64,000 nucleotides of DNA from Polyangiales bacterium (GCA_038231275.1 JBBRLQ010000001.1:480001-544000); one strand, 5' to 3'; positions 3,637-59,589 are shown, counted from the stretch's first letter. A program made the numbers and translations. Notes: generated by a model from the sequence alone, not told the origin.

Positions 3637-4755
3637 TCAGCGAGTCTCGATCGCCGCCAGGCCGCCGGCGACGAACCGGTAGAAGGTTTTGTGATCGAAC
3701 CCAGTCCACGCACGCTTGGCGGCGGTGGTGTGGCCGACCTCGGCCAAGTGGTCGGCCGGCACGCAGCCCATGAAGCGCGCGCCGGGCAGGCCTTTCGCGC
3801 TCGCGACCGTCGCCATGCCGTCGTTCGGCTCGCCGGAGAAGAAGTGCCCGGTCACGTCGTGCGCGGCGTCGAGGATCACGTCGGTGGAGAACGCGCGGTT
3901 CTGGAACGCGAACGTCGCGCTTCCGCAGTCGACGGGCATCGCCTTCGTGATGCGCTCGGGATGGAAGGGATGAAGGACGACGTTGGGGTTCTCGCTCACG
4001 CCGGCCCACGCGAAGTACGCGACGTCCGGATCGGCGGGATGGGACGCGGCGAAGGCGTCGGCGTTCGCCTCCGAGAGATCGTGGAGCGCCGCCTCGACGT
4101 GCGGATCGGAGACCAGCTCCTCCTTCGTGAACGTCCTCCCGATCAGGCCGGCGAGCTTGTCGAGATCCGACACCGCGATCGCCTCGAGCGTCGGATGCTC
4201 CTTGAACGCGCCGATCATCGACAGGCCGAAGTCCGCGATGTTCGTCCCACGGTTCGGCGTCGATACGGTCGTGAGCGAGACGACGCGCGGCAATCCCTCG
4301 CGCGCCGCGGCGCTCGGCGGGTGCAGGCGAATGTACTCGCGCGCGTGCAGGCCCCCGAAGGAGTGCGCGATGACGTGAACGCCGCTCGCGTCGCAGCCGG
4401 CGATCGCCTCGCACTGCGCCTTCACGCGACGCAGCGTCGTCTCCATCGTCGCCGCGCGCGCCGCCGCGCCGTCGAAGGGCTGCACTTCGTCGGCCACCAC
4501 AAGCACGTGACCGGCCGCCGTGAGATCCGCGACGACGCCGTCGAACTTCCAAATGCTCGACGCCTCCGCCGACGCCGCGAAGCCGTGCTCGAGGACGATC
4601 GGGAACTTCGTGACGCCCGCGGGCACCTGCCCTTCGAACAGCGTCTTGGCCGCGGTCACCACCGCCTCGTCCCCCTGCTCGGCGTTGCCCGCAGGCGCAG
4701 CTCCGCAGGCGGCGGTCATGAGAAGAGGGAGGAGCGAGAGGAGGGAGCGGCGCAT
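3637..4755 (-). CDS. Secreted lipase / alpha-beta hydrolase lipoprotein
   Basis: Lipobox TAAC; PIVLEHGF, AHSFGG nucleophile elbow, STPNRGT, NDG and DHLAEVG motifs. Confidence 0.85.
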   Translation of the reverse strand: MRRSLLSLLPLLMTAACGAAPAGNAEQGDEAVVTAAKTLFEGQVPAGVTKFPIVLEHGFAASAEASSIWKFDGVVADLTAAGHVLVVADEVQPFDGAAARAATMETTLRRVKAQCEAIAGCDASGVHVIAHSFGGLHAREYIRLHPPSAAAREGLPRVVSLTTVSTPNRGTNIADFGLSMIGAFKEHPTLEAIAVSDLDKLAGLIGRTFTKEELVSDPHVEAALHDLSEANADAFAASHPADPDVAYFAWAGVSENPNVVLHPFHPERITKAMPVDCGSATFAFQNRAFSTDVILDAAHDVTGHFFSGEPNDGMATVASAKGLPGARFMGCVPADHLAEVGHTTAAKRAWTGFDHKTFYRFVAGGLAAIETR

Positions 4756-4864
4756 GGCGCACATGTAAGCAAAGGTCGCACCTGCTCCAACTGATGGAAA
4801 TGACGCCACTACGTCGCGGCGAGGCGGATCTTTCCGGTGCGGTCGATCCAGGAGGCGCGCGGCG

Positions 4865-6241
4865 CTACGGGTTCTTCGCGACCTCCCGCGCCCACGCCTT
4901 CGCGGTCGCGCAGGTCCCGGCCGCCGTCGATTTGGCGGCGATCGTGGCCGGCCCCGCGACGATGACGAGCTCGCGTCCGTCGCGGTGCACGGCGAGCGGC
5001 CCGAGGTCGGCGCGTTCCACGCAGACGAATCCGCTCTCGCGCTTCGCGGTGCCGAGCTTGCCGAGCCCCGCGCCGACGGATTGGAACGCGCGCTCCGCCA
5101 GGGCGTCCTTCGTCGCGCCGGCGCTCGCGTCGTACCTCACATGCACGGCGATCGCGGTCTTCCCGCCGCCGGTCCAGATCGCGCCACGATCGCCGCCCCA
5201 TCCTGCGGCGGCCGACTTCGCCTCGTCGCGCATCATCCACTCCTCGAACATGAGGCGCATCTGCTGCTCGCCGTACGTGTCCTCGTCGACCATCGAAAAC
5301 CCCTGACCGAGCGCCGCCGCCGTCGGGCGTGCCACCGCGATCGCCGGCTCCTTCTTGAGCCACTTGTCCGGGTGGAGCATCTGCTCGGTCGTCTCCGGCA
5401 GGTGCTCCCACGCGTCGTTCACCGCCGCCCACCCGCCGGCGCGTCGCAGGCGGTTGATGAAGACGAGGCCATCGACGTACGGCGCCACAAGCGACGTTCG
5501 CATGATGTGGGGCGCACGCGCCGAGTCGCCGGTGTTCATCGAGCCGATCACCTGCTCGGTGAACACCTCCTCCGGCACGTCGAGCGCGGTCCGCGACGGA
5601 TCCATCTTCGAGACGATGTAGTCGGCCATCGCGCTCGTCGCGTCCCCTTCTGCCATCGCCGCGAGGGCGCCCGAGCGATCGCTCTCGCCCGGCTTGTACT
5701 TGCTGCGCTTCTTCAGATCCCAGTGCTGATCCTGAAGCGCGTGCACGAGCTCGTGCGCCAAGGTCGCCTCCGCGTTCATGCCGTCGAGATCGGAGGCCAT
5801 GTACATCGTGCCGTCCTCCGGCTCGTAGTACCCCGCGAGCTGCGACTCGAGCAGCGCGAACATCTCCTTGCCGTAGTCGAAGTCGTTCGGCACGAAGCCG
5901 AGGAGCTTGAGCGTCGCCCCCTCTCGCTCGATCGCCTCGGGCGGAATCTCCACGGAGACGTGCTGCTTCACGCGAAGGATGAGCTGATCGCGCGCGAGGA
6001 TCTTTCCCGGCACCTCGCGCGTCGCCGCCAAGCCACGAAGCTGCGTCACCCGCTCCAGCGTGCGCGCGACGAGCTTCAGCTGCTTCGCGTCGGCCCGAGT
6101 CGGCGTCGGAGTCGGCGTCGGAGTCGGAGTCGGCGTCGGCGTCGGAGTCGACGTCGGAGTCGGCGTCGGAGTCGACGTCGGAGTCGGAGTCGACGCACAC
6201 GCCGTGAGGAGCGCGGCCGCAAGCAGGAGCGCGCGGGTCAT
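4865..6241 (-). CDS. Putative zinc metallopeptidase lipoprotein (HExxH) with Thr-Pro linker
   Basis: Lipobox LTAC; (TP)n linker; HELVHALQDQH and EGDAT motifs. Confidence 0.8.
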   Translation of the reverse strand: MTRALLLAAALLTACASTPTPTSTPTPTPTSTPTPTPTPTPTPTPTPTRADAKQLKLVARTLERVTQLRGLAATREVPGKILARDQLILRVKQHVSVEIPPEAIEREGATLKLLGFVPNDFDYGKEMFALLESQLAGYYEPEDGTMYMASDLDGMNAEATLAHELVHALQDQHWDLKKRSKYKPGESDRSGALAAMAEGDATSAMADYIVSKMDPSRTALDVPEEVFTEQVIGSMNTGDSARAPHIMRTSLVAPYVDGLVFINRLRRAGGWAAVNDAWEHLPETTEQMLHPDKWLKKEPAIAVARPTAAALGQGFSMVDEDTYGEQQMRLMFEEWMMRDEAKSAAAGWGGDRGAIWTGGGKTAIAVHVRYDASAGATKDALAERAFQSVGAGLGKLGTAKRESGFVCVERADLGPLAVHRDGRELVIVAGPATIAAKSTAAGTCATAKAWAREVAKNP

Positions 6242-6927
6242 GTGCCGCCGCCTTCGCGCGCGCCTGCGTTACCTTCGGCGCGCAGCGACGCGATCGCCTC
6301 CGCGTAGCCCTTGGGGTGCGTGAAGATCGCGTTGCCTGCGACGAGCGCGCGGGCGCCGGCCTTGGTCGCGGCGCGGACGGTCTTGTCGCTGATGCCGCCG
6401 TCGATCTCGAGATCGATCGGGCGCTTCTCGGCGTCGATCATCGCGCGGATCTTGGTGACCTTCGGCAAGACCTCCGGCAAGAACGACTGCCCGCCGAATC
6501 CCGGGTTGACGCTCATCACGAGGATCAGGTCCACGAGGCCCATCACGTAGCGAAGCGTCTCCTCGCTCGTGCCTGGGTTGAGCACGACGCCCGCGCGTTT
6601 CTTGAGCGAGCGAATGTGCTGCAGCGTCCTGTGAAGATGCGTGCACGCCTCGACGTGGACCGTGATCGTGTCCGCGCCGGCGTCGGCGAACGCGTCGACG
6701 TATTTCTCGGGCTCGACGATCATGAGGTGCACGTCGAAGGGGAGCTTCGTCGCGCCGCGGATCGCCTTCACGATCGGAGGTCCAATCGTGAGGTTGGGTA
6801 CGAAGCGTCCGTCCATCACGTCGACGTGGATCCAATCGGCGCCCGCCTTCTCGACCGCGGCGATCTCCTCGCCGAGGCGCCCAAAATCCGCCGACAGGAT
6901 GCTCGGCGCGATGATCACGTCGCTCAC
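6238..6927 (-). CDS. rpe: Ribulose-phosphate 3-epimerase
   Basis: IAPSILSADF, HVDVMDGRFVPN, MSVNPGFGGQ and IDGGI motifs. Confidence 0.97.
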   Translation of the reverse strand: MSDVIIAPSILSADFGRLGEEIAAVEKAGADWIHVDVMDGRFVPNLTIGPPIVKAIRGATKLPFDVHLMIVEPEKYVDAFADAGADTITVHVEACTHLHRTLQHIRSLKKRAGVVLNPGTSEETLRYVMGLVDLILVMSVNPGFGGQSFLPEVLPKVTKIRAMIDAEKRPIDLEIDGGISDKTVRAATKAGARALVAGNAIFTHPKGYAEAIASLRAEGNAGAREGGGT

Positions 6928-7024
6928 TCTTGAAACCTCCGCGCGAGAGCGTGCGGGCCCTTCCCGCCGACGTCAAGAACACCCTAGGCCAAGCGACGAG
7001 AATCGGTATCCTGGGGTGAGAGCG

Positions 7025-7474
7025 ATGGAAACCAGGCCGTGCACGAAGGCGCACTTCGACGAGATCGTCGAGGTCATCGATCGCTGGTGGGGCGGGCCGA
7101 TCAGCACGTTCGCGCACCCGATCTTCTTCTACGAAATCGGCGACGCCGCGCTCGTGGTGGTCGAGGACGGGCAGATGATCGGCTTCCTCCTGGGCTTCAT
7201 CGCGCACCAGCCGGTGAAGACGGGCTACGTCCACCTCGTCGGCATCCACCCCGACTTCCGCAGGCGCGGCGTCGGCCGCCTCCTCTACGCCAAGTTCAGC
7301 GAAGCGAGCGAGCGCGCTCAATGTGTGCGCATGAAGGCGATCACGACGCTCGGCAACGAGGGGTCGCGGCGCTTCCACATCGCCCTCGGCTGGCAAGAGG
7401 AAGAGGTGGACGACTATGCCGGACCCGGAAGGCGTCGAATCGTCTTCACGAAGGACCTCGGCGTGCGAAACTAG
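7025..7474 (+). CDS. GNAT family N-acetyltransferase
   Basis: HPDFRRRGVGRLL acetyl-CoA motif; NEGSRRFH. Confidence 0.88.
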   Translation: METRPCTKAHFDEIVEVIDRWWGGPISTFAHPIFFYEIGDAALVVVEDGQMIGFLLGFIAHQPVKTGYVHLVGIHPDFRRRGVGRLLYAKFSEASERAQCVRMKAITTLGNEGSRRFHIALGWQEEEVDDYAGPGRRRIVFTKDLGVRN

Positions 7475-7525
7475 CTTCACCTGCGTAGTCCTCGTTGCCG
7501 CGGCACTTTGGGAGGTCGACTCCGG

Positions 7526-8410
7526 ATGCGACGCGCCACGTACCCGCTCTCGCTGATCTGCGCATCGGTCGTCGCCGCGCTCGTCGGGGCGTGCGCGCAT
7601 GGGCCGGTCGCCGCGACGGACACCTCCGACGAGACGCAGGGAGACGCGGCCGGTCACGTCACGGACGGCGCGGTCTCGCACGAGGCCGCGACGCCGGAAG
7701 AGGAAGGCGGTGCCGACGCGCGCGTGATCGATCCGCTCGACGCGTCTCCGTTCCCGTCCCCTCCGCCCCCGCCTCCCGTCGACGCCGCGCCGCCTGTCGA
7801 CGCGTCCACGTGCACGCGCGTCGGGCCTGGTCAGGCCTGCGGCGTCGCGCCGCAATGCGGGTGCTCGGCCAACCAAACGTGCGACCTCAACGGCACCGGC
7901 GACTCTTCGTGCGTCGGTCCCGCGGGGCTCGGCGTCGCCGGGAACCACTGCGTGAACGCCGCCGCGTGCCAAGTTGGGCTCACCTGCGGCTACGGCCAGT
8001 CGTGCCGTCCCTTCTGCAAGACACCCGGTCAGGCGTGCGGCGGCTCGAAGCTCGGAACGTGCATCCAGCTCAAAGATCGCAACGGCGGCGCCGTCCCGAA
8101 TTTCTTCGTCTGCGAGATCACGTGCCAGCTCCAGGACCCGAGCTCGTGCGGGTTCGGCTCGGGATGCTTCCAGAGCTCCGTCACCGCGGGCGCGTCGGAC
8201 TGCTACTCCGCGGGCACCAAGGGCCTGAACCAAGTCTGCGTCTACGCCGACGACTGCCAGGCGGGCTACGGCTGCGTCGGGTTCGGCGGCGGCACGTACC
8301 GCTGCAAAAACTGGTGCCGCGTAGGCCAGAGCGACTGCGGCGGCACGACGTGCGCCGGCTTTAGTCCCGCGCTCGTCGTCAACGGCGTAAGCTACGGCAC
8401 CTGTCCTTGA
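7526..8410 (+). CDS. Cys-rich secreted lipoprotein
   Basis: GGAGG RBS; lipobox VGAC; Pro/Asp-Ala linker; more than 20 Cys in the C-terminal domain. Confidence 0.8.
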   Translation: MRRATYPLSLICASVVAALVGACAHGPVAATDTSDETQGDAAGHVTDGAVSHEAATPEEEGGADARVIDPLDASPFPSPPPPPPVDAAPPVDASTCTRVGPGQACGVAPQCGCSANQTCDLNGTGDSSCVGPAGLGVAGNHCVNAAACQVGLTCGYGQSCRPFCKTPGQACGGSKLGTCIQLKDRNGGAVPNFFVCEITCQLQDPSSCGFGSGCFQSSVTAGASDCYSAGTKGLNQVCVYADDCQAGYGCVGFGGGTYRCKNWCRVGQSDCGGTTCAGFSPALVVNGVSYGTCP

Positions 8411-8414
8411 ACCC

Positions 8415-8963
8415 ATGAGCACGCCCAAACCCAATCCGCCGCCCGCCGCGGGTCCGAAGAAGGATCCTCCGGTGGACCTTGCGCAGCTTCGTGACATCGG
8501 GCTCTTCGGCGCCCTCTCCGACGAGGTGCTCGAGCACCTCCTCAAGACGCTCCACGAGAAGCGCGTCGGCGCGGGGGAGATGGTCTTTCGCGAGGGCGAT
8601 CCCGCGCGCGAGATGTACGTCGTGCTCGCCGGCGAGATGGAGGTGCTCAAGAAGAGCCGCCGCGGACGCGATCAGCGCGTCGCGATCCTCGGCCCCAACG
8701 ACACCTTCGGTGAGATGAGCGTCATCGACATGCAGGCGCGCTCGGCGACGGTTCGCGCGCTCGCGCCGTCGCGCGTCCTCCGCATGTCGACGGAGGACAT
8801 GGACGCGCTCTATCGCTTCGACTTGAAGAGCTACGCGCTCATCGTCCTGAACCTCGCGCGCGACATGTCACGACGCCTTCGCGTGACGGACGGCATCCTC
8901 GCGGACTTCACGGCGAGCGTCCTCGACGAGTACGTGCCCGGCAACGGCGGCCAGAAAAAGTAG
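8415..8963 (+). CDS. Stand-alone cyclic nucleotide-binding domain protein
   Basis: VFREGDPAREMYVVLAGEMEV and FGEMSVIDMQARSATV motifs; no obvious HTH. Confidence 0.9.
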   Translation: MSTPKPNPPPAAGPKKDPPVDLAQLRDIGLFGALSDEVLEHLLKTLHEKRVGAGEMVFREGDPAREMYVVLAGEMEVLKKSRRGRDQRVAILGPNDTFGEMSVIDMQARSATVRALAPSRVLRMSTEDMDALYRFDLKSYALIVLNLARDMSRRLRVTDGILADFTASVLDEYVPGNGGQKK

Positions 8964-8965
8964 CC

Positions 8966-9313
8966 TCAGCCGCCGTCGTCGCTCGCGTCGGTCGCGCCGT
9001 CGTCGTTCGCGTCGTTCGCGTCGCTCGCGTCGGTCGATCCGTCGCTTGCGCCATCGAGCCCGCCCTCGCTGGGGGGCGGCGCGCTGTCCGTGGCGCCGGA
9101 GTCGCTGATCGCGCCGGACGAGCCGGACGAGCCGCTGCTGCTCCCCCCGCCGGACGAGCCGCTGCTGCCCGGGCCCGTGGTGCTGTCACGGAAGTCTCCC
9201 GCATCTGTGGCGAGAGCCCCTTCCGGCGGGAGCGGCTGCGGGTTCACGGTGCAGGCGACGCCGAGCGCCGTCCCCAGCGCGAGGAAAATCGTGAGCGATA
9301 CGGTGCGTCGCAT
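8966..9313 (-). CDS. Small low-complexity lipoprotein with NPQPLPP motif
   Basis: MRRTVSLTIFLALGTALGVAC-TVNPQPLPPE followed by an S/G/D/A-rich tail; ATG coupled to the upstream TGA. Confidence 0.75.
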   Translation of the reverse strand: MRRTVSLTIFLALGTALGVACTVNPQPLPPEGALATDAGDFRDSTTGPGSSGSSGGGSSSGSSGSSGAISDSGATDSAPPPSEGGLDGASDGSTDASDANDANDDGATDASDDGG

Positions 9314-9669
9314 CAACCGTCCTCCGGTGCGTCGTTCGGTGAGTCGGCGGCGGCGTCGTTCGAAGCGTCCGCGCCCGCGTCGTTGCCCGCGCCGTCCGCG
9401 TCGCCGCCGGCGTCGGACACGGTCCCGATGCCCCCGTCGGCCCCGCCATCGTCCCGCGGGGGCGATGGGGTCGCGGCGTCGTTGCCGAACTGCGTGGAGC
9501 CGCCGTCGCTGCCGGAGTTGTCCTTGCCGCCGCTGGGGTCGTTGAGCGACTCGGGGGGCAAGGGCTGCGGGTTGACGATGCACGCCGCAGCCGCCGCCGC
9601 CGCGCCTGCGAGCACGACGATGCTGGCGAGGAGGCGCCAGGACAGGGCAGTGGGGAGGCGGAAACTCAT
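9313..9669 (-). CDS. Small low-complexity lipoprotein with NPQPLPP motif
   Basis: Signal ending AAAC-IVNPQPLPPE followed by a D/G/A-rich tail. Confidence 0.75.
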   Translation of the reverse strand: MSFRLPTALSWRLLASIVVLAGAAAAAAACIVNPQPLPPESLNDPSGGKDNSGSDGGSTQFGNDAATPSPPRDDGGADGGIGTVSDAGGDADGAGNDAGADASNDAAADSPNDAPEDG

Positions 9670-9689
9670 CGGCTCGGATCTCTATGCAA

Positions 9690-9704
9690 GCACCGTGGAT
9701 GCCA
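9690..9704 (-). promoter_or_regulatory. Possible sigma-54 promoter for the NPQPLPP lipoprotein pair
   Basis: Minus strand TGGCATCCACGGTGC fits GG-N10-GC, about 20 bp upstream of the ATG at 9669. Confidence 0.4.
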
Positions 9705-9784
9705 TCACAAAAACCGCGAAAAATCCTCAGATTCGGCGCTAGAAGGCACGACAGACCGCGACAGGCGAGGTAGAACGGCCCACC

Positions 9785-47091: not shown

Positions 47092-48918
47092 GTGGCATCT
47101 GCGCGCGCCGGAACGCCTCGCTCGTCCGAAGGCGGGCCGTCCGAGCGGGTCATCGGCGCGGCGCGCGCGGCGAGCGTGCTCCTTCCAGCGATCCTCGCGG
47201 CGGCGCACGTCGATCACGTCCCCGACGCGGCGCACGATCTCGGCGTCGCGCGGGTCGTCGGCCTCGGGTGGACCGGCGCGCTGCGCGGTCTCGACGTGCT
47301 CGCGGGGACGGCGTTCGCGTGGCTGCCGATTGGGACCCGCGCGTTTCGGGTGGGGCTCGCGTCGGCCGTGCTGTGCGGCGTCGGGGCCGGGCTCGTCTTC
47401 GAGCTCGGGTGGGCGCTCGTCTCGAGCGTGGCGCCGCGCGCGACGCGGTTGGGCCCCGCCGCGGCGGCGGTCGCTGCGCTCACCTGTGGCCTCTCGGTGG
47501 CGTGGCAGCTCGAGGCGGCGAGCGCGGGCACGCCGATCCTCGGCGCGATCCTCGTCCTCGGACCGCTCGTCGCGCTCGCGCGTGCGAAGAGCGTGCAGGA
47601 TGCACCGATCGCGACGATCGGGCTATTTTTAGGGCTCGCCGCGACCTACGAACCCCTGGTCGGGCTGGCGGCGTTTCTCTCCACGGCGGCCTTCGCGACG
47701 CTCGGCGGACGCGCGGAAGGGCTCGTCGCGAAGGAGCACGTTCGCAAGCTCGCGCCGCTCGCCTTCGCGGCAGCCGGCATCGCGCCCCTGGCGTTCGCGT
47801 TCTTGCGCGCACGCCATGACCCGCTCCTGGTCTTGCCGCGTCCGCCGCTCGCTTCCTTGCTCGGGGAGGCGGGCGCGTCGCCGCGGGGTTCGCCGATCGG
47901 GCTCGTGCACGCGGAGCTCGGGTTGGCGCTCGTGGTGCTGGCGGTCTTTGGACTGGTGCTCGCCGCGCGGTCGCCGAAGGGTCGACCGCTCGCGGCGGGG
48001 CTCTTCGCGATCGCGGCGGTGGGCTTCGCGGGTGCGGCCGTAGGTGCGCCCGCCGGGCCGACGCGCTGGGCGGGGCCGGTCCTCGCCGCGCTCGGCGCGC
48101 TCATGGCGCTGGCGGCCCTCGCGATGCAGGCGGTCGTTCGTGTCGTCGCGGATGCGCGCATCCCCTTCGCGCAGGCCAGCGCGGCGATGATCGTGGTCTT
48201 GCTCCTCGCGTTTCCGGCGCGCGTCGCCGACGACGCGTGGGGGCGCGCGGCCGATCGCGGGCGTGGCGGCGCGGTCGCGTGGGAGGAGGCGGCGTGGGGC
48301 GCTCTTCCGTTCGGAGCGGTCGTGCTTCTGGACGATCGGCGCGCGCTCGAGCGCATCGTCGCCGCGCGCGCCACCGGAGCGATGCGCGTCGATCTCGCGA
48401 TCGTGCCGTTCCGCGAGCTCTTGGGTCCGATGGCGTCGCTCGAGATCGCGCGCGAGCCGAAGCTCCAGGCGTTCCTCCGCGACATGGCGCTGGAGGGAGC
48501 GCCCGAGGAGCTGAGCCTCTCGTCGCTCGCCGCGGCGCGCCCGCTGGCGATGACGTTCGATCCGCGGTGGGACAAGCCGCTCTCGCGCCACCTCGTGCCG
48601 GCCGGGATGGTCGCGCGATTCGAGACGGAGCCGCGCGGCTCCAGCGATCGCAAGCGCGCGCTCGATCTCGGCGATGCCGCGCGCGCGCGCTTCGAGCGTC
48701 TCGTCACCCGCCCGCGGGATCTCGAGCTCTGCGCCGCGGCGGCCTCGCTCCTCCGTTCGCGCACCGTCGCGTTCGCGGCCGCAGGCGATCGCGAGGTCGT
48801 CGCGCGGGGCCTCGACGAGCTGAGGCCGTTTGCGCCGGACGACGCTGTGGCGAGCGAGCTGTCGCGTCGCGTCGTCAGCAGCAAGGGCGGCATCGAGGTG
48901 AAGGATCTTCACCCCTAG
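47092..48918 (+). CDS. Polytopic membrane protein, possibly a DUF2723/GT-C-like glycosyltransferase
   Basis: Many hydrophobic segments plus a soluble C-terminal part; WLPIGTRAFRV resembles DUF2723; family call tentative. Confidence 0.55.
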   Translation: MASARAGTPRSSEGGPSERVIGAARAASVLLPAILAAAHVDHVPDAAHDLGVARVVGLGWTGALRGLDVLAGTAFAWLPIGTRAFRVGLASAVLCGVGAGLVFELGWALVSSVAPRATRLGPAAAAVAALTCGLSVAWQLEAASAGTPILGAILVLGPLVALARAKSVQDAPIATIGLFLGLAATYEPLVGLAAFLSTAAFATLGGRAEGLVAKEHVRKLAPLAFAAAGIAPLAFAFLRARHDPLLVLPRPPLASLLGEAGASPRGSPIGLVHAELGLALVVLAVFGLVLAARSPKGRPLAAGLFAIAAVGFAGAAVGAPAGPTRWAGPVLAALGALMALAALAMQAVVRVVADARIPFAQASAAMIVVLLLAFPARVADDAWGRAADRGRGGAVAWEEAAWGALPFGAVVLLDDRRALERIVAARATGAMRVDLAIVPFRELLGPMASLEIAREPKLQAFLRDMALEGAPEELSLSSLAAARPLAMTFDPRWDKPLSRHLVPAGMVARFETEPRGSSDRKRALDLGDAARARFERLVTRPRDLELCAAAASLLRSRTVAFAAAGDREVVARGLDELRPFAPDDAVASELSRRVVSSKGGIEVKDLHP

Positions 48919-48934: not shown

Positions 48935-48955
48935 AAAGAGTAATACATACTTTAT
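48935..48955. promoter_or_regulatory. Putative NrtR-type operator
   Basis: AT-rich imperfect palindrome AAAGAGT-AATACAT-ACTTTAT (GT-N7-AC) abutting the PARG start. Confidence 0.55.
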
Positions 48956-49772
48956 GTCACTTCAGGAGATCGCCGCCGAGACCGTCCGAATCGTCGACGC
49001 CGGCATGTATCGCGCGCCTTCGGGCCGTGACGTCCGGATCGACGCGCTCGTCGCCGCCGCCGAACGAGGCACCGCGCTGGTGCGACCGGGCGAGACGGAC
49101 GAGGTCGCGTTCGAGGCCCGCGCAGGAAAATGCGAGATCGAAGTGGTGCCGGAGACGACCGCGAAGGCCGCGCGCCGGCTCGTCCTGGCCGGGCATCCGC
49201 GCGTCGCGGCGCTGAACTTCGCGTCCGCCACGAACCCGGGCGGCGGCTTCCTCGGTGGCGCGATCGCCCAAGAGGAAGACCTGGCGCGTGCTTCGGCCCT
49301 CTACAAGTGCCTCCTCGCGCAGCCCGCGTACTACGCCGTGCACCGCAAGAGCCCGTCGCCGATCTACACCGACCACCTCGTCTACTCGCCCGACGTCCCG
49401 TTCTTCCGGGACCACGAGCTGACGTTGATCGAGGAGCCGTTCACCGTCTCGATCCTGACCGCCGCCGCGCCGAACGCAGGCGAGGCGCTCGCGGTCGACG
49501 TCAACGCCGCGCCCGCGATCGCAGCGGCGCTCGAGAAACGTGCGCGCGTGGTGCTCGACGTCGCGGCTGCGCGTGGGCACAGGGTCCTTGTCCTCGGCGC
49601 GTGGGGCTGCGGCGTGTTCCGGAACGATCCGGCGCAGGTCGCCAACATCTTCGCGCATTGGCTCGAGCACGCGCGGTTTCGCGGCGCCTTCGAGCGCGTC
49701 GTTTTCGCGATCTACGACCGCGCGCTCCGCCAGCCGAGCCTCACCGCGTTCCGCGATCGCTTTTCCGACTAG
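48954..49772 (+). CDS. TIGR02452-type bacterial poly(ADP-ribose) glycohydrolase (macrodomain)
   Basis: LNFASATNPGGGFLGGAIAQEEDLARAS and LGAWGCGVFRN motifs. Confidence 0.92.
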   Translation: MSLQEIAAETVRIVDAGMYRAPSGRDVRIDALVAAAERGTALVRPGETDEVAFEARAGKCEIEVVPETTAKAARRLVLAGHPRVAALNFASATNPGGGFLGGAIAQEEDLARASALYKCLLAQPAYYAVHRKSPSPIYTDHLVYSPDVPFFRDHELTLIEEPFTVSILTAAAPNAGEALAVDVNAAPAIAAALEKRARVVLDVAAARGHRVLVLGAWGCGVFRNDPAQVANIFAHWLEHARFRGAFERVVFAIYDRALRQPSLTAFRDRFSD

Positions 49773-51256: not shown

Positions 51257-51751
51257 ATGAAGGAACCGTCCGCTCTGCACGAGGTCGGCGTCAGCGTCGA
51301 CTTCGGCGTCTTCAAGATGAACGCGAAGTGGGCGCCCGATCCGCGCCAGCGCGACGCCGCGTGGGCGATGTACGTCGAGCTCTCGACACGCATCGCGACG
51401 CAGGATCTGGATCTCGAGGTGGGCCTCCTCCGCGAGGCGCTCGACTCGCTCCACGCGCTCTTCGGTGTCACGCGCGAGATCCTCCGCAAGGAGGGCGCGC
51501 ACGTCGGCAAGGAGCCGAACACGGTCGGCGGAATGTCGATCCAAGTGCTCAATGCGGGGATCCGCCCGTTCCTGACGAAGTGGCACCCGCGCCTGGCGGA
51601 CTGGGAGACGCACAAAGATCCGCACACGAGCACGCTGTCGCACGAGCGCGCGTGGCAAGACGAAGCGAAATGCCGCGGCGAGCTGGCGAAGCTCCAGCGA
51701 GGCCTTTTGACCTATGCCGAAGCGCTCGGGAAAATCGCCGGCGCGGCCTGA
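51257..51751 (+). CDS. Hypothetical helical protein (first gene of the TIR operon)
   Basis: AAWAMYVELSTRIATQ, REALDSL and VLNAGIRPFLTKWHP segments; host-like codon usage. Confidence 0.8.
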   Translation: MKEPSALHEVGVSVDFGVFKMNAKWAPDPRQRDAAWAMYVELSTRIATQDLDLEVGLLREALDSLHALFGVTREILRKEGAHVGKEPNTVGGMSIQVLNAGIRPFLTKWHPRLADWETHKDPHTSTLSHERAWQDEAKCRGELAKLQRGLLTYAEALGKIAGAA

Positions 51752-51758
51752 GGCGGGG

Positions 51759-52418
51759 GTGACCTCGGTCTCGGTCTCGCGAAGCGCACGCGCGCGCGAC
51801 GACGGGCGGGGCGAAGGCGCGCCCGCCTACGACTACGAGGTCTTCGTCAGCTACCGGCGGCGCGATCCGGTGCTGTCGTGGATGAACAACCATTTTTTCC
51901 CAAAGCTCGTTCACTGGCTGCCGCAGTTCTGGCCGAGCGAGCTGCCCACGCCGCGCGTCGCGAAGGACGATCAGATGGAGACGGGCGTACGGTGGCCCGA
52001 TCGCCTCGCGCAGATGCACGCGGGCTCGCGGTGCATGGTCGCGATCCTGTCGCCCGAGTATTTTCGCTCGGAGTGGTGCACGAGCGAGTGGCGGGCGATG
52101 CAGGCGCGGGAGAAGGTCGTCGGGATGGCGACGAAGAGCCGGACGCGCGGCCTCATTTTCCCGGTCCTCTTCTGCGGAGACACGTCGGTGCTCCCCAAAG
52201 AGGCGGCGGCGCGGCAGTGGGCGGACTTCACGCGCCTCAATTTCCCGGACGAAGTGTTCCGCTTTCATCCCACGTACCTCGAGCTCGATCAGGCCGTGCA
52301 AGGCGTCGCGCGCGATCTCGTCTCGATGATCAAGAGCGCGCCGCCGCGCCGCGCGTGGCCTCGGCTCGAAGCCCCCAAGACGCTCGCGCGGCCGCCCATC
52401 GCGCTCCCGAGGCTTTGA
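51759..52418 (+). CDS. TIR domain protein
   Basis: YEVFVSYRR, G-x-x-W, MVAILSPEYFRSEWCTSEW (catalytic Glu) and IFPV motifs; start uncertain. Confidence 0.88.
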   Translation: MTSVSVSRSARARDDGRGEGAPAYDYEVFVSYRRRDPVLSWMNNHFFPKLVHWLPQFWPSELPTPRVAKDDQMETGVRWPDRLAQMHAGSRCMVAILSPEYFRSEWCTSEWRAMQAREKVVGMATKSRTRGLIFPVLFCGDTSVLPKEAAARQWADFTRLNFPDEVFRFHPTYLELDQAVQGVARDLVSMIKSAPPRRAWPRLEAPKTLARPPIALPRL

Positions 52419-52421
52419 GAG

Positions 52422-54143
52422 ATGGGCACGATCGTCACCTTCTACTCGTACAAAGGCGGCACCGGTCGCACGCTGGCTCTCGCCAACGTCGCCACGCTGC
52501 TCGCGCAGTGGGGGCACAAGGTCCTCTGCGTCGATTGGGATCTCGAGGCACCGGGGCTTCACCTCTACTTCGAGCGCCAAGCAGCGCCGGCGAAGGGCGG
52601 CCTCGTCGAGGTCATCGGGGCGCTCGCGAGCGGCCAGAAAAAATCGTCGTGGCAGCGCTACGTCGTTCGTACGGAGATCGGCGCGCGGGGCAAGCACGCG
52701 CGGGCGCGAAAGGGCAAAGGGCGGCTCGATCTCCTCGCGGCGGGAAAGCCCGGGCGCGGGTACGTCGCGCGGCTCCAAGCGCTCGACTGGAGCGCGCTCT
52801 ACGCCAAGGGGCTCGGCGAGGAGATCGAGCGCCTGCGTGAAGAGTGGTCGGCGGCGTACGACTTCGTGCTCCTCGACAGCCGCACCGGCATCACCGACAT
52901 CGGCGGCATCTGCACGGCGCAGCTTCCCGACATCCTCGTCCTGATGGCGACGGCGAACGATCAGAGCCTCGAAGGGATCGTCGACGTCGCCGATCGCGCG
53001 CGCGCCGCACGATCGCGGATGCCGCTCGACAAGCCCGTTTTGCACTGCGTCCCAGTGCCCTCGCGTTTCGACGTGCACATGGAGAGCGCGATCAGCGCCA
53101 AGTGGCTCCAAAAATTCGCGACGCGCCTCGAGCCGTATTATCGGACGTGGCTCCACACCGCGATCGCGCCGTCCGAGATCCTCGCGCACGTGAAAATTCC
53201 GTACACGCCGGTGTGGAGCTTCGGTGAGCGCTTGCCCGTCATCGACGAGGGCACCGCGGATCCGGAGTCGATCGGGTTCGCGCTCGAGACGCTCGCGGCG
53301 CTCGTCGCGCACAAATTGGCGTACTCCGACGTCCTCGTACGCAACCGGGACAGCTTCCTCGCGGCGGCGCGTGGCGCGCGCGCAGAAGAGGACGCGTCGC
53401 GCGGAGAGTTCGGCACGGACGTCTTCGTGAGCCACGGCGCCGCCGACGGCGAGCTCGCGTCGCGCCTCTCGCGCGCGCTGAAAAAGCGCGGTCTCGCTGT
53501 GACTCGGCACGAGCGCGGCGGCGAGACTGCGCTGGCGCGCGAGCAATCGCTGCGCGGCGCGAAGAACCTGCTCACGATCGTGGGTCCCGAGTTCGGCGGG
53601 TGGCAGCTCGAGGAGACGATGAGCTTCCTCAAGATGGCCAACGCGCCGAGCCAGCGCGTCGTCGTGCTCCTCACGCGCGACGCCCGTCCGGCCGACGTGC
53701 CGCCGCTCCTTCGCGACGCGCCCGTGCTGGACGATCGACGACCCGAAGGCGCGCTCGTCGATCGCCTGGCGTCGGTGATGGGGTCGCTCGCGCGCGCCGA
53801 CGATCCGCAACACGGATTGTGGGGGCGCCGCGCCGAGCGCGCAGGCCGCGAGCTGACCGCCAAGGTGCGCCCCGTGAAGGGCGAGCGCGATCTCTACCGG
53901 ATCGATCTCACCGTCACGCGCGCGAAGGGGGCGTCGCCGATTCGCGGTCCGGTGCGCTTCCACCTGCATCCGTCGTTCAAGCGCCACGTTCGCGAGGTCG
54001 AGCCGGCCGGCGGCGTCGCGTCCCTGTCGGTCCTCGGCGCGAGCGCGTTCACCGTCGGCGCCGAGCTCGACGACGGCGCGACCATCCTCGAGCTCGATCT
54101 CGCGCGCGTGCCCGGCGTTCCCAAGGGGTTCGTCGACGTCTGA
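52422..54143 (+). CDS. ParA/MinD-like (KGGxGR) ATPase - TIR - pYEATS fusion protein
   Basis: TFYSYKGGTGRT, DWDLEAPG and LDSRTG; DVFVSH...WQLEE; VRFHLHPSF...AFTVGA...LELDL. Confidence 0.85.
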   Translation: MGTIVTFYSYKGGTGRTLALANVATLLAQWGHKVLCVDWDLEAPGLHLYFERQAAPAKGGLVEVIGALASGQKKSSWQRYVVRTEIGARGKHARARKGKGRLDLLAAGKPGRGYVARLQALDWSALYAKGLGEEIERLREEWSAAYDFVLLDSRTGITDIGGICTAQLPDILVLMATANDQSLEGIVDVADRARAARSRMPLDKPVLHCVPVPSRFDVHMESAISAKWLQKFATRLEPYYRTWLHTAIAPSEILAHVKIPYTPVWSFGERLPVIDEGTADPESIGFALETLAALVAHKLAYSDVLVRNRDSFLAAARGARAEEDASRGEFGTDVFVSHGAADGELASRLSRALKKRGLAVTRHERGGETALAREQSLRGAKNLLTIVGPEFGGWQLEETMSFLKMANAPSQRVVVLLTRDARPADVPPLLRDAPVLDDRRPEGALVDRLASVMGSLARADDPQHGLWGRRAERAGRELTAKVRPVKGERDLYRIDLTVTRAKGASPIRGPVRFHLHPSFKRHVREVEPAGGVASLSVLGASAFTVGAELDDGATILELDLARVPGVPKGFVDV

Positions 54144-54179: not shown

Positions 54180-55025
54180 ATGAGGCTCGCCGCCATCGCC
54201 CTCGCGCTGTCGCTTCCGCTCTTAGCCGCATCGTCTGCGCGCGCCGCCGGTCCGCCGCCACCTGAGGGCGCCGTGCACATGAAGGACGGCGGCCTCATCC
54301 GCGGCGGCCTCCTCGAGGTGAAGCCCGACGATCACGTCACGGTGCTCCTCGCGACCGGGCAGACCGCGACGATCCCTTGGCATCTCGTCGATCGCATCGA
54401 AGGAATCGCCAGCACCGCGCCGCCGTCGGCCCTGGTCGTCGTCCCTCCGCCGCCGCGACGCACCGCCCTCGTGCACATCGAGTCCGATCGACCGGTCCGC
54501 CTCGAGGCCGCGACCGGCAAGAAGAGCTTCGACTTCGTCTGCCAATCGCCGTGCGACAAGGAGGTCGATCTCGACCGGCGCTACCGAATCGGCGGCGACG
54601 GCGTGCGCAACACGAGCCCGTTCTCGATCGAGGCGCAGCCGCACCAGCGCGTCGTCATCGACGTCGACACGTCGTCGAAGGGCTCGTTCGTCGGCGGCAT
54701 CGTGCTCGTGAGCATCTCGCCGGTCGTGGCGCTCATCGGCCTCGTCGTCTACGCGGTCAGCTCGATCACGCTCGACGGCTCGGGCGGGAGCGACAGTGGT
54801 CGGACCGTCGGCGTCGTCATGGGGGTCGGCGGCCTCGTCGGCATCGTCCTCGGCACGGTCATGATCATCTCCAGCTCGAGCTCGAAGCAGTCGCAATCGA
54901 TCGCCGGTCCTCCTCCTCCCGGCACGCCGCCCGCGCGCGACGCCGCACGCGAGCCGATCTGGCACACCGGCGTCGTCGCCCCGCCCGCCGCGACGACGTT
55001 CGAGGTCCCGGTCCTCCGCTTCTGA
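54180..55025 (+). CDS. Secreted/membrane protein (PEGA-like domain, two C-terminal hydrophobic segments)
   Basis: Signal peptide; VCQSPC; TM-like segments. Confidence 0.72.
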   Translation: MRLAAIALALSLPLLAASSARAAGPPPPEGAVHMKDGGLIRGGLLEVKPDDHVTVLLATGQTATIPWHLVDRIEGIASTAPPSALVVVPPPPRRTALVHIESDRPVRLEAATGKKSFDFVCQSPCDKEVDLDRRYRIGGDGVRNTSPFSIEAQPHQRVVIDVDTSSKGSFVGGIVLVSISPVVALIGLVVYAVSSITLDGSGGSDSGRTVGVVMGVGGLVGIVLGTVMIISSSSSKQSQSIAGPPPPGTPPARDAAREPIWHTGVVAPPAATTFEVPVLRF

Positions 55026-56074: not shown

Positions 56075-56258
56075 GGTGAACCTCCGGTGGGGTAGTGATG
56101 CCGGGCGCTCGCTCTTGGTTGCGCGCGGTTTCGCGAAGGGCCCTCGCGCCTCGATTCTGCGGTGCCCACACATCCAGAGGCGATAGGATCGTGAGGATGT
56201 GGCACGATCGTCCACACTCGGGCGGACAATGGCCGCCGGACTCCCATCGCGCGCAGCC

Positions 56259-57422
56259 ATGAGTCGCTCACATCGCCTGTTCACGCCGCGAGCCGCGACG
56301 CTGGCCGCCCTCCTCGGTGCGGCGAGCGCGGGGTGCAGCGCGCTCCTGGCGATCGCCGACGTGGGATACGGGGCGCCCGACGCGGGCGGCGATGCGGGGC
56401 TGGACGAAGAGCTCGCCGCCCGCGAGGGGGGAGAGGACGCGGCGTTCTGCAAGGACGCGGACGTCGTGGCAGACCCCCTCAACTGCGGCGCCTGCCGACA
56501 CGATTGCCTCGGTGGTGCCTGCACCGGGGGCCTTTGCCAGCCGTACCTGATCGCCGTCGCAAACCACCCGCGCGGCATCGGCGTGGACGGCGCGGAGATT
56601 TACTTCGCCACGGACCGAGAGGTGCTGCACCACTCGACGCGCGCAGGCTCCGAGGTGCCCAAGAGCCTCGCGGCGAACCAGAGCGAGCCGGAGGGCCTCG
56701 CGATCACGTTGCGCGGTATCTATTGGACGACCAACGAGTACTTCATTGCGACGGGCGGAAGTCTTTCGTTCGCGACGCGGCAGGGGCAGAGCTCGGTGCT
56801 CGTTTCTCCGGCTCCGGCGAGCTTTTTTGTCGAGGCGAGAGGCGGCGCGGTTTTCTGGAACCTCCGCGCGCAAGGTGACGGGGGCGACAGCATCATGTGG
56901 ATCCATGAGGACGGCGGTACGGAGGCAGGTGCCCTCCGCGGATTGGGCAGCACGTTCGGTCTCGCCATGGACGACGAGCGCACCTACTGGACGGAGCCTT
57001 CCAAAGGCATCATCCACTATTGCGACCGACCAGCGTGCGCGATGGCGCGTACCCTCCTAAGCAGCGAGCCCGGGGCGCGGGCGATCACGGTTCGCGGCTC
57101 CCGCTTGTATTGGGTCCGGGGCTTCACATTGAAGAGCTGCACGCTGCCCGCCTGCGCCGACGAGACCACCCTCGCCTCCCAAGGCTTTGGGACGACCACG
57201 CCCGAGCCCGGAAAGATCGCCGTCGACGACGACTACGTTTACGGAAGCGGCACGGACGGAGCGACCTTGGTCCGATGTTCCGTCGCGGGGTGCGGCGGCA
57301 ATCCGGAGGTCGTCGCGACCGCGAACCAGCCATTCGACATCGCTTTGGACGATGCAGGTGTCTACTGGTCGAGCTTCGCGGCGCCCGATGCGGGTGGCGG
57401 CATCTTCGGTAAGGCGAAATAG
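56259..57422 (+). CDS. Lipoprotein with Cys-rich module and beta-propeller (YW repeats)
   Basis: Lipobox SAGC; DPLNCGACRHDCLGGAC; repeated IAVD..VYW. Confidence 0.8.
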   Translation: MSRSHRLFTPRAATLAALLGAASAGCSALLAIADVGYGAPDAGGDAGLDEELAAREGGEDAAFCKDADVVADPLNCGACRHDCLGGACTGGLCQPYLIAVANHPRGIGVDGAEIYFATDREVLHHSTRAGSEVPKSLAANQSEPEGLAITLRGIYWTTNEYFIATGGSLSFATRQGQSSVLVSPAPASFFVEARGGAVFWNLRAQGDGGDSIMWIHEDGGTEAGALRGLGSTFGLAMDDERTYWTEPSKGIIHYCDRPACAMARTLLSSEPGARAITVRGSRLYWVRGFTLKSCTLPACADETTLASQGFGTTTPEPGKIAVDDDYVYGSGTDGATLVRCSVAGCGGNPEVVATANQPFDIALDDAGVYWSSFAAPDAGGGIFGKAK

Positions 57423-58665: not shown

Positions 58666-59589
58666 GTGAGCGCGCCGGGGCCGGTCTACGTCAAGCGAAC
58701 GTCCTGCCGCGCCTGCGGTGGCCCGAAGGTGACGCGCCCAAAGACCGGGTACGTCTACTGCGACTACTGCGCGACGCTCATCGACTGGGACTTCCAGGTC
58801 GCGATCTCGACGAAGGGATCAGCGCTTCCCGGACCGCAGTACGAGATCCTCGCCGCGCAGCTGAAGCCGGAGCTGGACGCCGCGCTCGCCGCCCTCGATC
58901 GACCGCGATATTACCGTGCACAATACACACTCTACGCGCTGTACGTTCAGCTGTGCCCCGCGTCGCTCTCGCCGCGCGTGGGCGATCCCGCATACCGCGC
59001 GGCGTTCGTCGACTACACCGCGAAGACGACGACCGAGCAGGATTTCGATCCGGCCACCGCGGCGACGACGGCCGCGATGGACGACGCCGTGAAGAAGCTC
59101 CAGTGGATCAACGCGGGCGGCGCGATGCAGTGCGCCCCGGCGACGTTCTGGCCGATGTGGGACGCCGTCGTGGCGAAGATCCAGGCGAGCATCGACATCA
59201 ACGGGCGAACCGGCCTCCTCGCGCAGCACCCTGACGGCGCGCCGGCGGACCTTCTCCTTCGCATGGGTCTGTCGGCGATGGTGCAGGGTTGGCTGCCTTA
59301 CCTCGGCGCCGCCGACAGCGAGCGGCTCCTCGCGGTGAGCGGCATGAAGGGCGAGTACGTCGCGGTGCAGCCGCCGCCCACGACCGAGTCGCCGTGCTCG
59401 GGATGCGGCGGCGCGCTCCACATCGTGCAAGGAGCGAAGCGCGTCGTGTGCGAGTCGTGTGGGCGCGTGAACGATCTGGGCGCCGGCTCGATCGCGTGCC
59501 CGACCTGTGGCGGCCACGTGCCGATCGGCGAGGGCAACCTCGCGTCGTGCCCGTTCTGCCGCGCAGATCTCAGGGCGATGCGGCCGTGA
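58666..59589 (+). CDS. Multi zinc-ribbon protein
   Basis: Six CxxC motifs: two N-terminal, four C-terminal. Confidence 0.75.
   Translation: MSAPGPVYVKRTSCRACGGPKVTRPKTGYVYCDYCATLIDWDFQVAISTKGSALPGPQYEILAAQLKPELDAALAALDRPRYYRAQYTLYALYVQLCPASLSPRVGDPAYRAAFVDYTAKTTTEQDFDPATAATTAAMDDAVKKLQWINAGGAMQCAPATFWPMWDAVVAKIQASIDINGRTGLLAQHPDGAPADLLLRMGLSAMVQGWLPYLGAADSERLLAVSGMKGEYVAVQPPPTTESPCSGCGGALHIVQGAKRVVCESCGRVNDLGAGSIACPTCGGHVPIGEGNLASCPFCRADLRAMRP

Follow-up and report, generated by a model that had tools for sequence, protein, structure and literature searches.

A TIR-ParA-pYEATS operon of a Polyangiales bacterium and the small protein family encoded at its upstream end

In the accessible text of a preprint of 22 Oct 2026, Li, Burroughs and Aravind (bioRxiv 10.64898/2026.10.19.760177) propose, by computational prediction, a class of 'TIR-ParA apoptosis systems', in which the gene of a ParA ATPase is preceded by that of a conventional active TIR, and a subset of the ATPases carries a C-terminal TIR, with an active site said to be lost, followed by variable sensors; a 'ligand-binding subtype' of these systems names pYEATS as the C-terminal sensor. 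The ConB2 type of ParA found there is recognised by two features, a Walker A motif in which arginine replaces the lysine and a PG following the sensor-1 DxD. According to the mechanism put forward by the same authors, the sensor signals to the ParA switch, upon which the active TIR destroys NAD+ (nicotinamide adenine dinucleotide), and the inactive TIRs aid multimerisation. The systems are described as enriched in multicellular bacteria, and related ternary TA-ParA systems, where a ParA-sensor protein is attached to a toxin-antitoxin (TA) pair, are proposed to work by reorganising the contact between toxin and antitoxin. In the second relevant preprint, here too in its accessible text, Yirmiya et al. 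(3 Dec 2025, bioRxiv 10.64898/2025.12.03.692087) define types V-XI of Thoeris, type VI being composed of a TIR and ThsG (DUF6650, PF20355). The TIR of type VI makes 2'cADPR, and added 2'cADPR stops the growth of cells bearing the system; ThsG is, according to AlphaFold3, a tube-shaped homo-hexamer in which pockets of positive charge lie between the protomers, and some ThsG proteins carry N-terminal transmembrane helices. We compare with both groups a three-gene operon located at positions 51257-54143 of a 64,000-nucleotide stretch of DNA from a Polyangiales bacterium (GCA_038231275.1, JBBRLQ010000001.1:480001-544000; this whole stretch is called the window below). Its genes encode a small helical protein (gene 1), a stand-alone TIR protein (gene 2) and a fusion of a ParA-like ATPase, a second TIR and pYEATS (gene 3).

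The operon is best read as two joined modules, the TIR-ParA dyad of genes 2 and 3 and a wider pair formed by gene 1 and gene 2. The dyad has already been described, computationally, while the four libraries scanned (Pfam, NCBIfam, PADLOC and, for six members, PHROGs, with 0 families matched) all lack the gene 1 family. An initial annotation of the window had presented the whole operon as a candidate undescribed system; the word 'undescribed' no longer applies to genes 2 and 3, and gene 1 is the new part. The three-gene combination appears to bridge the TIR-ParA and Thoeris frameworks as a new variant. It is a meeting point of the TIR-ParA systems, with their predicted killing by NAD+ loss, and the expanded Thoeris, in which TIRs make signals for dedicated effectors, and gene 1 would give the TIR-ParA systems a concrete third component.

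Genes 2 and 3 compared with TIR-ParA systems

All three genes lie on the plus strand. Gene 1 is an open reading frame (ORF) of 164 amino acids (51257-51751). Gene 2 (51714-52418) starts either with ATG at 51714, which gives an overlap of 38 nucleotides with gene 1, or with the in-frame GTG at 51759, which leaves a gap of 7 nucleotides; 3 nucleotides separate it from gene 3 (52422-54143, 573 amino acids). The gaps of 7 and 3 base pairs between co-oriented genes, as reported in the initial annotation, were confirmed, the former counted from GTG 51759, and all the motifs quoted there (WCTSEW, KGGTGRT, DVFVSH, WQLEE, VRFHLHPSF, AFTVGA and LELDL) were found again. Between 51707 and 51735 a promoter-like site was noticed, with one match to a consensus.

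Gene 2 occupies the 'TIR-FC' position. Its TIR domain (about 51840-52238, plus strand) matches TIR_2 of Pfam (E 2.4e-14, 54.3 bits, cut-off 28) and, under the cut-off of 130 bits, FxsC_Nterm of NCBIfam (NF040588, E 6.1e-15, 55.6 bits). The glutamate of its CTSEW motif (Glu125, codon 52086-52088, plus strand) aligns to the column of the plant RUN1 TIR that holds Glu in the structure 6o0w and Ala in 7s2z, and which we take to be that of the catalytic Glu. A Glu of this type is invariant in all 29 TIR proteins encoded beside gene 1 homologues that were compared. Judged by its sequence, the TIR of gene 2 keeps, as the initial annotation had it, an intact catalytic-type Glu, and is a predicted enzyme.

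The N-terminal part of gene 3 (residues 4-192) matches the NCBIfam model NF047398, 'KGGVGR-motif variant AAA ATPase', with 164.7 bits (cut-off 90), next to further Pfam matches of ParA/MinD type, and residues 5-185 match component B of the PADLOC candidate PDC-M28 (PDC-M28B, 3.6e-26). This ConB2-type ParA domain (52431-52997, plus strand) contains the Walker A motif KGGTGRT and the segment DWDLEAPG, a DxD sensor followed by PG. It had been called a deviant-Walker-A ATPase; the ParA-like assignment stood, but the P-loop departs from the ordinary deviant type, since Arg (R16) replaces the catalytic Lys in 120 of the 120 aligned homologues, each of which also keeps K11 and PG. The Arg-P-loop ParA poses, beside the role of gene 1, a second biochemical question.

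The second TIR of gene 3, at the 'TIR-FT' position (residues 334-437, 53421-53732, plus strand), matches TIR_2 with E 8.1e-10 and retains W394...E398. Across the 120 homologues the column of E398 holds E in 82 and D in 26, and both W394 and E398 are kept in 27. Within the 27-sequence pYEATS set 7 keep the two residues, these being the query and the six sequences nearest to it, and the other members have mostly A...D (14/27). The W...E and A...D patterns look like a recent split, possibly between active and degenerate versions. The C-terminal pYEATS, a predicted ligand sensor (PF20305, residues 492-560, 53895-54101, plus strand), was detected with E 5.5e-10 and 39.4 bits (cut-off 26.9). The ATPase-TIR-pYEATS fusion proposed earlier is in this way borne out by library matches for each of its three parts.

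The likeness to the TIR-ParA class extends over an upstream TIR with an active site that appears intact in sequence, a ConB2 ParA with the P-loop Arg and PG, a C-terminal second TIR, a pYEATS sensor, the gene order and the occurrence in genomes of Myxococcales type; with high confidence we assign genes 2 and 3 to the ligand-binding subtype of TIR-ParA apoptosis systems. Like the operon, the class is known from computation alone. Two differences were noticed with respect to the accessible text of the preprint: the window has a small helical gene upstream of the TIR, and none is named there, and its second TIR keeps W...E, which the authors hold to be lost in the class. The scheme of the initial annotation, which leads from a sensor through an ATPase switch and TIR-TIR assembly to NAD+ depletion or a signal, is essentially the proposal of Li, Burroughs and Aravind themselves, as given in that text, and is partly supported by our comparison.

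Three further kinds of systems resemble the dyad. Gene 2 recalls the N-terminal TIR of FxsC, and gene 3 has the ParA-TIR core of FxsT, both known from the FxSxx-COOH peptide systems; however, gene 2 scores under the FxsC cut-off, the FxsC-C domain, STAND and TPR modules are absent, and neither radical SAM nor peptide genes were found among the ten neighbouring genes scanned. PDC-M28 shares with the operon its component B, but the match covers the ATPase domain only, and none of its models is matched by gene 1 or gene 2; publications describing this candidate were not found, and literature on 'KGGVGR' gave nothing relevant. A match to a named system, which the initial annotation had listed as a refutation, was obtained in part, for genes 2 and 3. 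The third kind, the TA-ParA systems, is considered together with the role of gene 1.

Proteins related to gene 3 are numerous, 2759 being found at E<=1e-10 among 8000 scored, and a precomputed pYEATS annotation is present on 25 of the 120 homologues listed, the query counted. The KGGVGR ATPase occurs in 31 of 401 genomes of the phylum. At the 29 other KGGVGR-ParA loci of this sample, home-made hidden Markov models (HMMs), which are insensitive, detected pYEATS in 0/29 and an upstream TIR in only 2.

The gene 1 family and its TIR neighbours

The initial annotation could not assign the 164-amino-acid product of gene 1, and the libraries named above did not assign it either. Weak Pfam matches of single relatives (DUF1441 at 0.018, and others) were rejected, as they concerned single members only. 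The family itself is large: when its profile was run against 1.84 billion cluster representatives, 2150 relatives passed E<=1e-3, of which 1456 also passed 1e-10 and 355 passed 1e-30. Among 150 listed representatives 23 contain 2-4 copies of the domain, and certain relatives have an N-terminal hydrophobic stretch, read by eye as a transmembrane helix. A Pfam survey of 33 long forms found the domain fused to an XRE-type helix-turn-helix (HTH) in 8, to TIR_2, in both orders, in 4, and to SLOG, a calcineurin-like phosphoesterase and BTAD-TPR in 1 each; 2 had weak membrane-type matches and the remaining 16 no family found. Fusion to TIR was also met in a protein-language atlas, in the form of a 201-member actinobacterial TIR_2 cluster, the model of which includes the gene 1 domain (TM-score by query 0.79).

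Neither of the two preprints (bioRxiv 10.64898/2026.10.19.760177 and 10.64898/2025.12.03.692087) names a small partner like gene 1 in its accessible text, although their figures or supplements may show one, and the passages on TIR, GUN4, helical domains and antitoxins in papers from eLife 2020, eLife 2021 and Viruses 2022 name no such small TIR partner.

Relatives of gene 1 were found at 7 loci of species-representative genomes, and a scan of metagenomes gave at least 582 relatives among 595 pattern matches, of which the best 80 loci were analysed; these were not de-replicated and include a few near-duplicates. In three of the genome loci (L001, L002 and L003, with 91, 78 and 56% identity) the order gene 1, TIR, ParA-pYEATS is repeated, which is the recurrence elsewhere that the initial annotation had proposed to look for. 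The other four differ: in L004 the gene 1 homologue is followed by a gene for a TIR-NACHT-FGE-sulfatase protein, in L006 it lies between a divergent TIR gene upstream and a gene for an FGE-sulfatase protein downstream, in L007 it is flanked on both sides by ThsB-like TIR genes, with Nmad2 and a methylase-HNH fusion in the same block, and near that of L005 a TIR was not seen. Multiple ThsB-like TIR genes surround the homologue in L007, L023 and L081. Among the metagenome loci, L016 and L017 contain gene 1 plus ParA, pYEATS being detected in L017 only.

For the metagenome loci, 132 neighbour ORFs (the nearest upstream, the nearest downstream and the second downstream) were scanned with Pfam. By this measure a TIR gene adjoins the gene 1 homologue in 6 of the 7 genome loci and in 42 of the 80 metagenome loci, and many of those lacking a TIR match are contigs ending beside the homologue. 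The partner TIRs are fused to GUN4, FGE-sulfatase, STAND/AAA_16, TPR, a dynamin-like GTPase or WD40-Roc, while others stand alone. For a second count, independent of ORF calling, all 87 loci were translated in six frames and searched with local HMMs; 71 of them have at least 450 nucleotides downstream of gene 1. The local TIR model was built from some of these 87 loci, and the Pfam count is the independent one. A TIR starts within 300 nucleotides downstream of gene 1, on the same strand, in 46/87 loci (43/71 of those with sufficient downstream sequence); it lies within 300 nucleotides upstream in 3/87 (2/71), elsewhere in the locus in 14/87 (12/71), and is found nowhere in 24/87 (14/71). The local background, itself inflated, amounts to 22 TIR domains in 205,189 base pairs of the same loci, more than 1.5 kilobases (kb) from gene 1, and the presence of TIR next to gene 1 is a strong excess over it.

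The association is with TIR, not with ParA, because none of the 29 other KGGVGR-ParA loci of the phylum sample has gene 1 within 1.5 kb and none of the 5 other gene 1 loci of the 401-genome sample has ParA, TIRs being present at 2 of these 5. A role of gene 1 as a general partner of ParA was rejected on the former count. The three-gene combination is limited to the window's own clade, and its arrangement is not due to chance, given that the order recurs in L001-L003 and that gene 1 accompanies ParA in L016 and L017. Obtained results lead us to regard gene 1 as very probably a true functional partner of TIR enzymes.

In evolutionary terms the two partners behave differently. Over 45 paired loci the mean pairwise identity is 65% for the gene 1 domain vs 30% for the adjacent TIR, gene 1 is the better conserved in 97.3% of 941 locus pairs, and between the window and loci of cyanobacterial type the identity is about 50% for gene 1 and 11-24% for TIR. 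Variable TIRs beside a constant partner are the usual Thoeris pattern. In the family alignment 13 positions are invariant (A34, W36, T44, R45, G56, S64, R73, G80, L98, R103, P104, W109 and H110) and another ten are near-invariant, giving 23 conserved in all. The distribution is patchy, with gene 1 in 6 of the 401 phylum genomes sampled and in 0 of 29 other genomes of the window's own family. On viral contigs only 3 loci with relatives were met, a TIR lying just upstream in 2 of them.

Similarity of gene 1 to DUF6650 and its possible roles

A first indication of possible kinship came from the protein-language atlas, where the only named family listed for gene 1 beside unnamed clusters was DUF6650 (0.84), and where all the top three named clusters of a second family member were again DUF6650 (0.82, 0.80 and 0.80), scores under 0.9 being leads only. 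For profile comparison a DUF6650 set was collected from one gene (L133) and its homologues (161 at E<=1e-3 among 368 candidates; all 120 listed are annotated PF20355). Alignment of 130 gene 1 sequences with 110 DUF6650 sequences by hhalign gave a score of 31.5 and E 5.7e-4, collinear over 169 columns and spanning both domains, while 25 controls (5 reversed or unrelated, 20 with permuted DUF6650 columns) reached scores of at most 18.8 and a best E of 0.048. Cross searches with the two HMMs had real maxima of 8.6 and 10.9 bits vs 1.2-2.0 bits for reversed or shuffled sequences, and R45, R73 and R103 of gene 1 align to conserved Arg of DUF6650. The similarity scores all lie in the range of leads, weak but controlled, and make gene 1 a possible distant relative of DUF6650/ThsG. 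At L133, the sole DUF6650 locus fetched, home-made HMMs found no TIR within 1.5 kb, a result that is uninformative.

AlphaFold2 predicts for gene 1 a beta-hairpin followed by a helical bundle, with a predicted local distance difference test (pLDDT) of 90.7 and a predicted TM-score (pTM) of 0.84. Foldseek found nothing for this model in the PDB at E<=1e-3, the BFVD gave no match, and 0 PDB sequences matched the family profile at E<=10. A joint model of four copies had a median score of 0.47, the best among 3 controls scoring 0.00; 80% or more of the contacts agreed between runs, and partner pLDDT was at least 74. In a benchmark, 20 out of the 30 proteins with structures solved as pairs attained this mark, as did 1 out of the 23 solved as single chains, counts that are rough, as the calibration was made on two copies. 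Neighbouring copies touch head-to-tail in the model: residues 32-45 of each face 69-81 and 95-99 of the next, so that one face contains W36, V40, E41, T44 and R45, and the other F69, R73, L76, G80, L98 and N99. In the model this interface takes up 40 of the 164 residues and holds 11 of the 23 conserved positions, which is compatible with a ligand pocket between protomers.

Four likenesses to type VI Thoeris can be listed: a protein of about 165 amino acids and no known function with its gene next to that of a TIR, apparent N-terminal transmembrane helices on some members of both families, a predicted homo-oligomer with conserved basic residues (R45 and R73 in the model of gene 1) between protomers, and the sequence-profile similarity, weak and controlled. 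Three features are unlike: the gene 1 family does not match PF20355, stands apart from it and, on the numbers these searches gave, exceeds it in size; the TIRs paired with it frequently bear large sensor domains; and in the window a ParA-TIR-pYEATS gene follows.

The reading we favour, tentatively and as somewhat short of an even chance, is that of a Thoeris-like pair placed under ParA-pYEATS control, in which the TIR makes an ADP-ribose-derived signal and an oligomer of gene 1 binds it. In such a system pYEATS would bind a ligand reporting infection or stress, and ParA would dimerise or switch in a nucleotide-dependent manner, bringing its fused TIR to the TIR of gene 2. The assembled TIR would then cleave NAD+ and release the signal, and the gene 1 protein, assembled head-to-tail into a homo-oligomer that has conserved Arg, Trp, Thr and Asn between its protomers, would bind it and arrest growth, acting like ThsG, the 2'cADPR-responsive DUF6650 effector of type VI Thoeris. 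The initial annotation had allowed for gene 1 as the sensor of the trigger, which is possible, but the data agree better with gene 1 as receptor or effector for a signal that the TIR makes.

A number of points weigh against this Thoeris-like pair. The fusion to XRE-type HTH and the position upstream of an enzyme are also typical of antitoxins. Many TIR partners of the family carry sensors of their own (STAND, SAVED, WD40-Roc, GUN4, FGE-sulfatase), the operon sits amid housekeeping genes, not within a defence island, and gene 1 is absent from the other KGGVGR-ParA loci, as given above. The proposed kinship with DUF6650 has its own counter-evidence: PF20355 matched 0 of 38 gene 1 family members at E<=1, the hhalign probability is only 29.5%, and in the structure search of the atlas with the second family member the DUF6650 cluster is not listed, the next TM-score beyond the clusters of the family itself being 0.34. 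PF20355 was furthermore found in 0 of the 401 genomes of the phylum, the window's own genome included. Gene 1 is without an enzymatic or membrane domain, which leaves a gap as to the route of toxicity, the same gap that exists for ThsG proteins lacking transmembrane helices in the accessible account of them. Lastly, the TIRs of CBASS and Avs type among the sensor-bearing partners are set aside in the accessible text of Yirmiya et al. (bioRxiv 10.64898/2025.12.03.692087) as effectors that deplete NAD+ and not as makers of signals.

The main rival, which we consider unlikely, makes gene 1 an antitoxin-like inhibitor of the NADase activity of the gene 2 TIR, from which the ParA-sensor protein would free the TIR to deplete NAD+, as a TIR version of TA-ParA. 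Such a role suits a small gene directly upstream of an enzyme with a tiny gap or overlap, as found at the 46 loci with TIR within 300 nucleotides, and it suits the HTH of the 8 long forms, since many type II antitoxins carry one, as well as the direct fusion of the domain to TIR. It also has precedents, namely the TA-ParA systems, with a ParA-sensor on TA pairs (bioRxiv 10.64898/2026.10.19.760177), and the known RES-Xre pair, whose toxin degrades NAD+ and whose antitoxin has an HTH (PMC9503650), each taken from the accessible part of the source; with these the operon shares a three-gene logic in which a small protein encoded upstream is joined by an enzyme that targets NAD+ and by a ParA-sensor, and the gene 1 family shares the XRE HTH. 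However, the six toxin classes listed for TA-ParA in the text at hand do not include TIR, and the conservation of gene 1 does not follow an antitoxin-like pattern: it far exceeds that of the TIR (about 50% vs 11-24%), which is unusual for an antitoxin that has to match the surface of its toxin. The conserved polar and basic residues lie, moreover, between protomers of the predicted homo-oligomer, and the tandem multi-copy and seemingly membrane-anchored forms are atypical of antitoxins.

Distinctly less probable, in our opinion, is a place of gene 1 upstream of the TIRs in the pathway, as a module that binds a ligand or serves as adaptor and helps to activate or assemble them, as SAVED or STING do in TIR fusions. 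The variety of outputs fused to the domain (TIR, HTH, phosphoesterase, BTAD) and its conserved polar, pocket-like residue set would agree with that role, the predicted homo-oligomerisation could scaffold TIR assembly, and in L086, L088 and L091 the gene pairs with genes for Nuc_deoxyri_tr2 (PF15891). On the other hand, dedicated sensors are already present on most partner TIR proteins and on gene 3, and a natural fusion of TIR with the gene 1 domain shows in its model a disordered linker of about 40 residues and no confident packing of the domains; the AlphaFold2 prediction of this fusion (P0102; pLDDT 74.6, pTM 0.57) is, with such a linker, uninformative on domain contact.

A broader form of the Thoeris-like reading, possible but more doubtful than that for the operon itself, would make gene 1 the founding member of a large family that serves as receptor or effector of nucleotide signals made by TIRs; this family, with a distant relation to ThsG, would be common in cyanobacteria, actinobacteria and myxobacteria and paired with sensor-bearing TIRs. 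Were this true, the TIR-ParA system of the window and many TIR-GUN4, TIR-FGS and TIR-STAND 'NAD+ depleters' would be Thoeris-like signalling cascades, and the ParA-pYEATS protein would gate the production of the signal. Whether gene 1 is a signal receptor, an inhibitor or a scaffold would decide whether many sensor-fused bacterial TIRs signal or deplete NAD+.

Surroundings of the operon and of related loci

Scanning of 10 neighbour genes identified an aspartyl-tRNA synthetase, a family-less membrane protein, a microbial-type poly(ADP-ribose) glycohydrolase (PARG), a glutamine-synthetase-like protein, a family-less protein, an aldo-keto reductase, an Fe-alcohol dehydrogenase, 2 more family-less proteins and a GH5 cellulase; none of the 10 is a mobile-element gene. 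The guanine-cytosine content near the locus is about 68%, and the composition is continuous with the surroundings, with no break.

Such a chromosomal locus, with housekeeping flanks and the composition of its surroundings, agrees with another explanation, which in our judgement is very improbable: that the operon is not anti-phage and serves regulated cell death or signalling in the multicellular life of myxobacteria, or that gene 1 is merely syntenic to a two-gene TIR-ParA system. The enrichment of TIR-ParA systems in multicellular bacteria, stated in the accessible text on them (bioRxiv 10.64898/2026.10.19.760177), goes in the same direction, as does the search for viral relatives of gene 1, with its 3 loci on viral contigs and none in PHROGs. 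A defence role is favoured over these by the patchy spread, with gene 1 in 6/401 and this ParA type in 31/401 phylum genomes, and by the relatives that adjoin Thoeris-like TIRs, methylase-HNH, TIR-SAVED and RAMP genes, while the adjacency of gene 1 and TIR across phyla argues against mere synteny.

The PARG gene (PF10021, E 1.5e-48; 48954-49772, plus strand) lies two genes upstream of the operon. It is probably outside the system, because L001, a syntenic locus, has no ORF of its size at the corresponding position, the ORFs of L001 having been compared by layout alone; a size-matched ORF is present there at the position of the glutamine-synthetase gene, a neighbour common to the window and L015. 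An ADP-ribose-processing enzyme so near two TIR domains deserves attention despite its probable non-membership. Four sizeable neighbour ORFs on the plus strand are without Pfam family (47092-48918, 54180-55025, 56199-57422 and 58666-59589); read by eye, the second has hydrophobic stretches at its N- and C-terminal ends, and the last contains several CxxC pairs.

Several loci of relatives contain further genes beside TIR. The low-GC (46%) stretch of L007 at 4290-9780 has the look of a defence island, being a dense block of genes for a ThsB-like TIR, the gene 1 homologue, a TIR, a ThsB-like TIR, Nmad2, an unassigned protein and a DNA methylase-HNH fusion. L004 (3299-8485) has a reverse transcriptase gene (RVT_1) after the gene 1 homologue and the TIR-NACHT-FGE-sulfatase gene, and FGE-sulfatase/C-type-lectin domains next to reverse transcriptases recall diversity-generating retroelements. 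In L071 (1-3631) genes for a prokaryotic LSDAT/SLOG protein, the gene 1 homologue, TIR and DUF4231 (PF14015) stand in one row, possibly as a larger nucleotide-signalling cassette.

In L086 (4489-5438), L088 (2583-3543) and L091 (3263-4088) the gene 1 homologue lies between WD40-Roc-TIR and Nuc_deoxyri_tr2 genes. This nucleoside 2-deoxyribosyltransferase-like type may belong to the DrHyd group, a superfamily that both preprints, in their accessible text, put in one class with TIR (bioRxiv 10.64898/2026.10.19.760177 and 10.64898/2025.12.03.692087).

An ORF of constant length (84 amino acids), with no Pfam family, directly follows the gene 1 homologue in L045 (696-2945), L042 (2394-5237), L028, L055 and L094. 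In L042 a RAMP (type III CRISPR) protein is encoded upstream, and in L045 the ORF is followed by a TIR-SAVED gene, which lies two small ORFs downstream of the gene 1 homologue.

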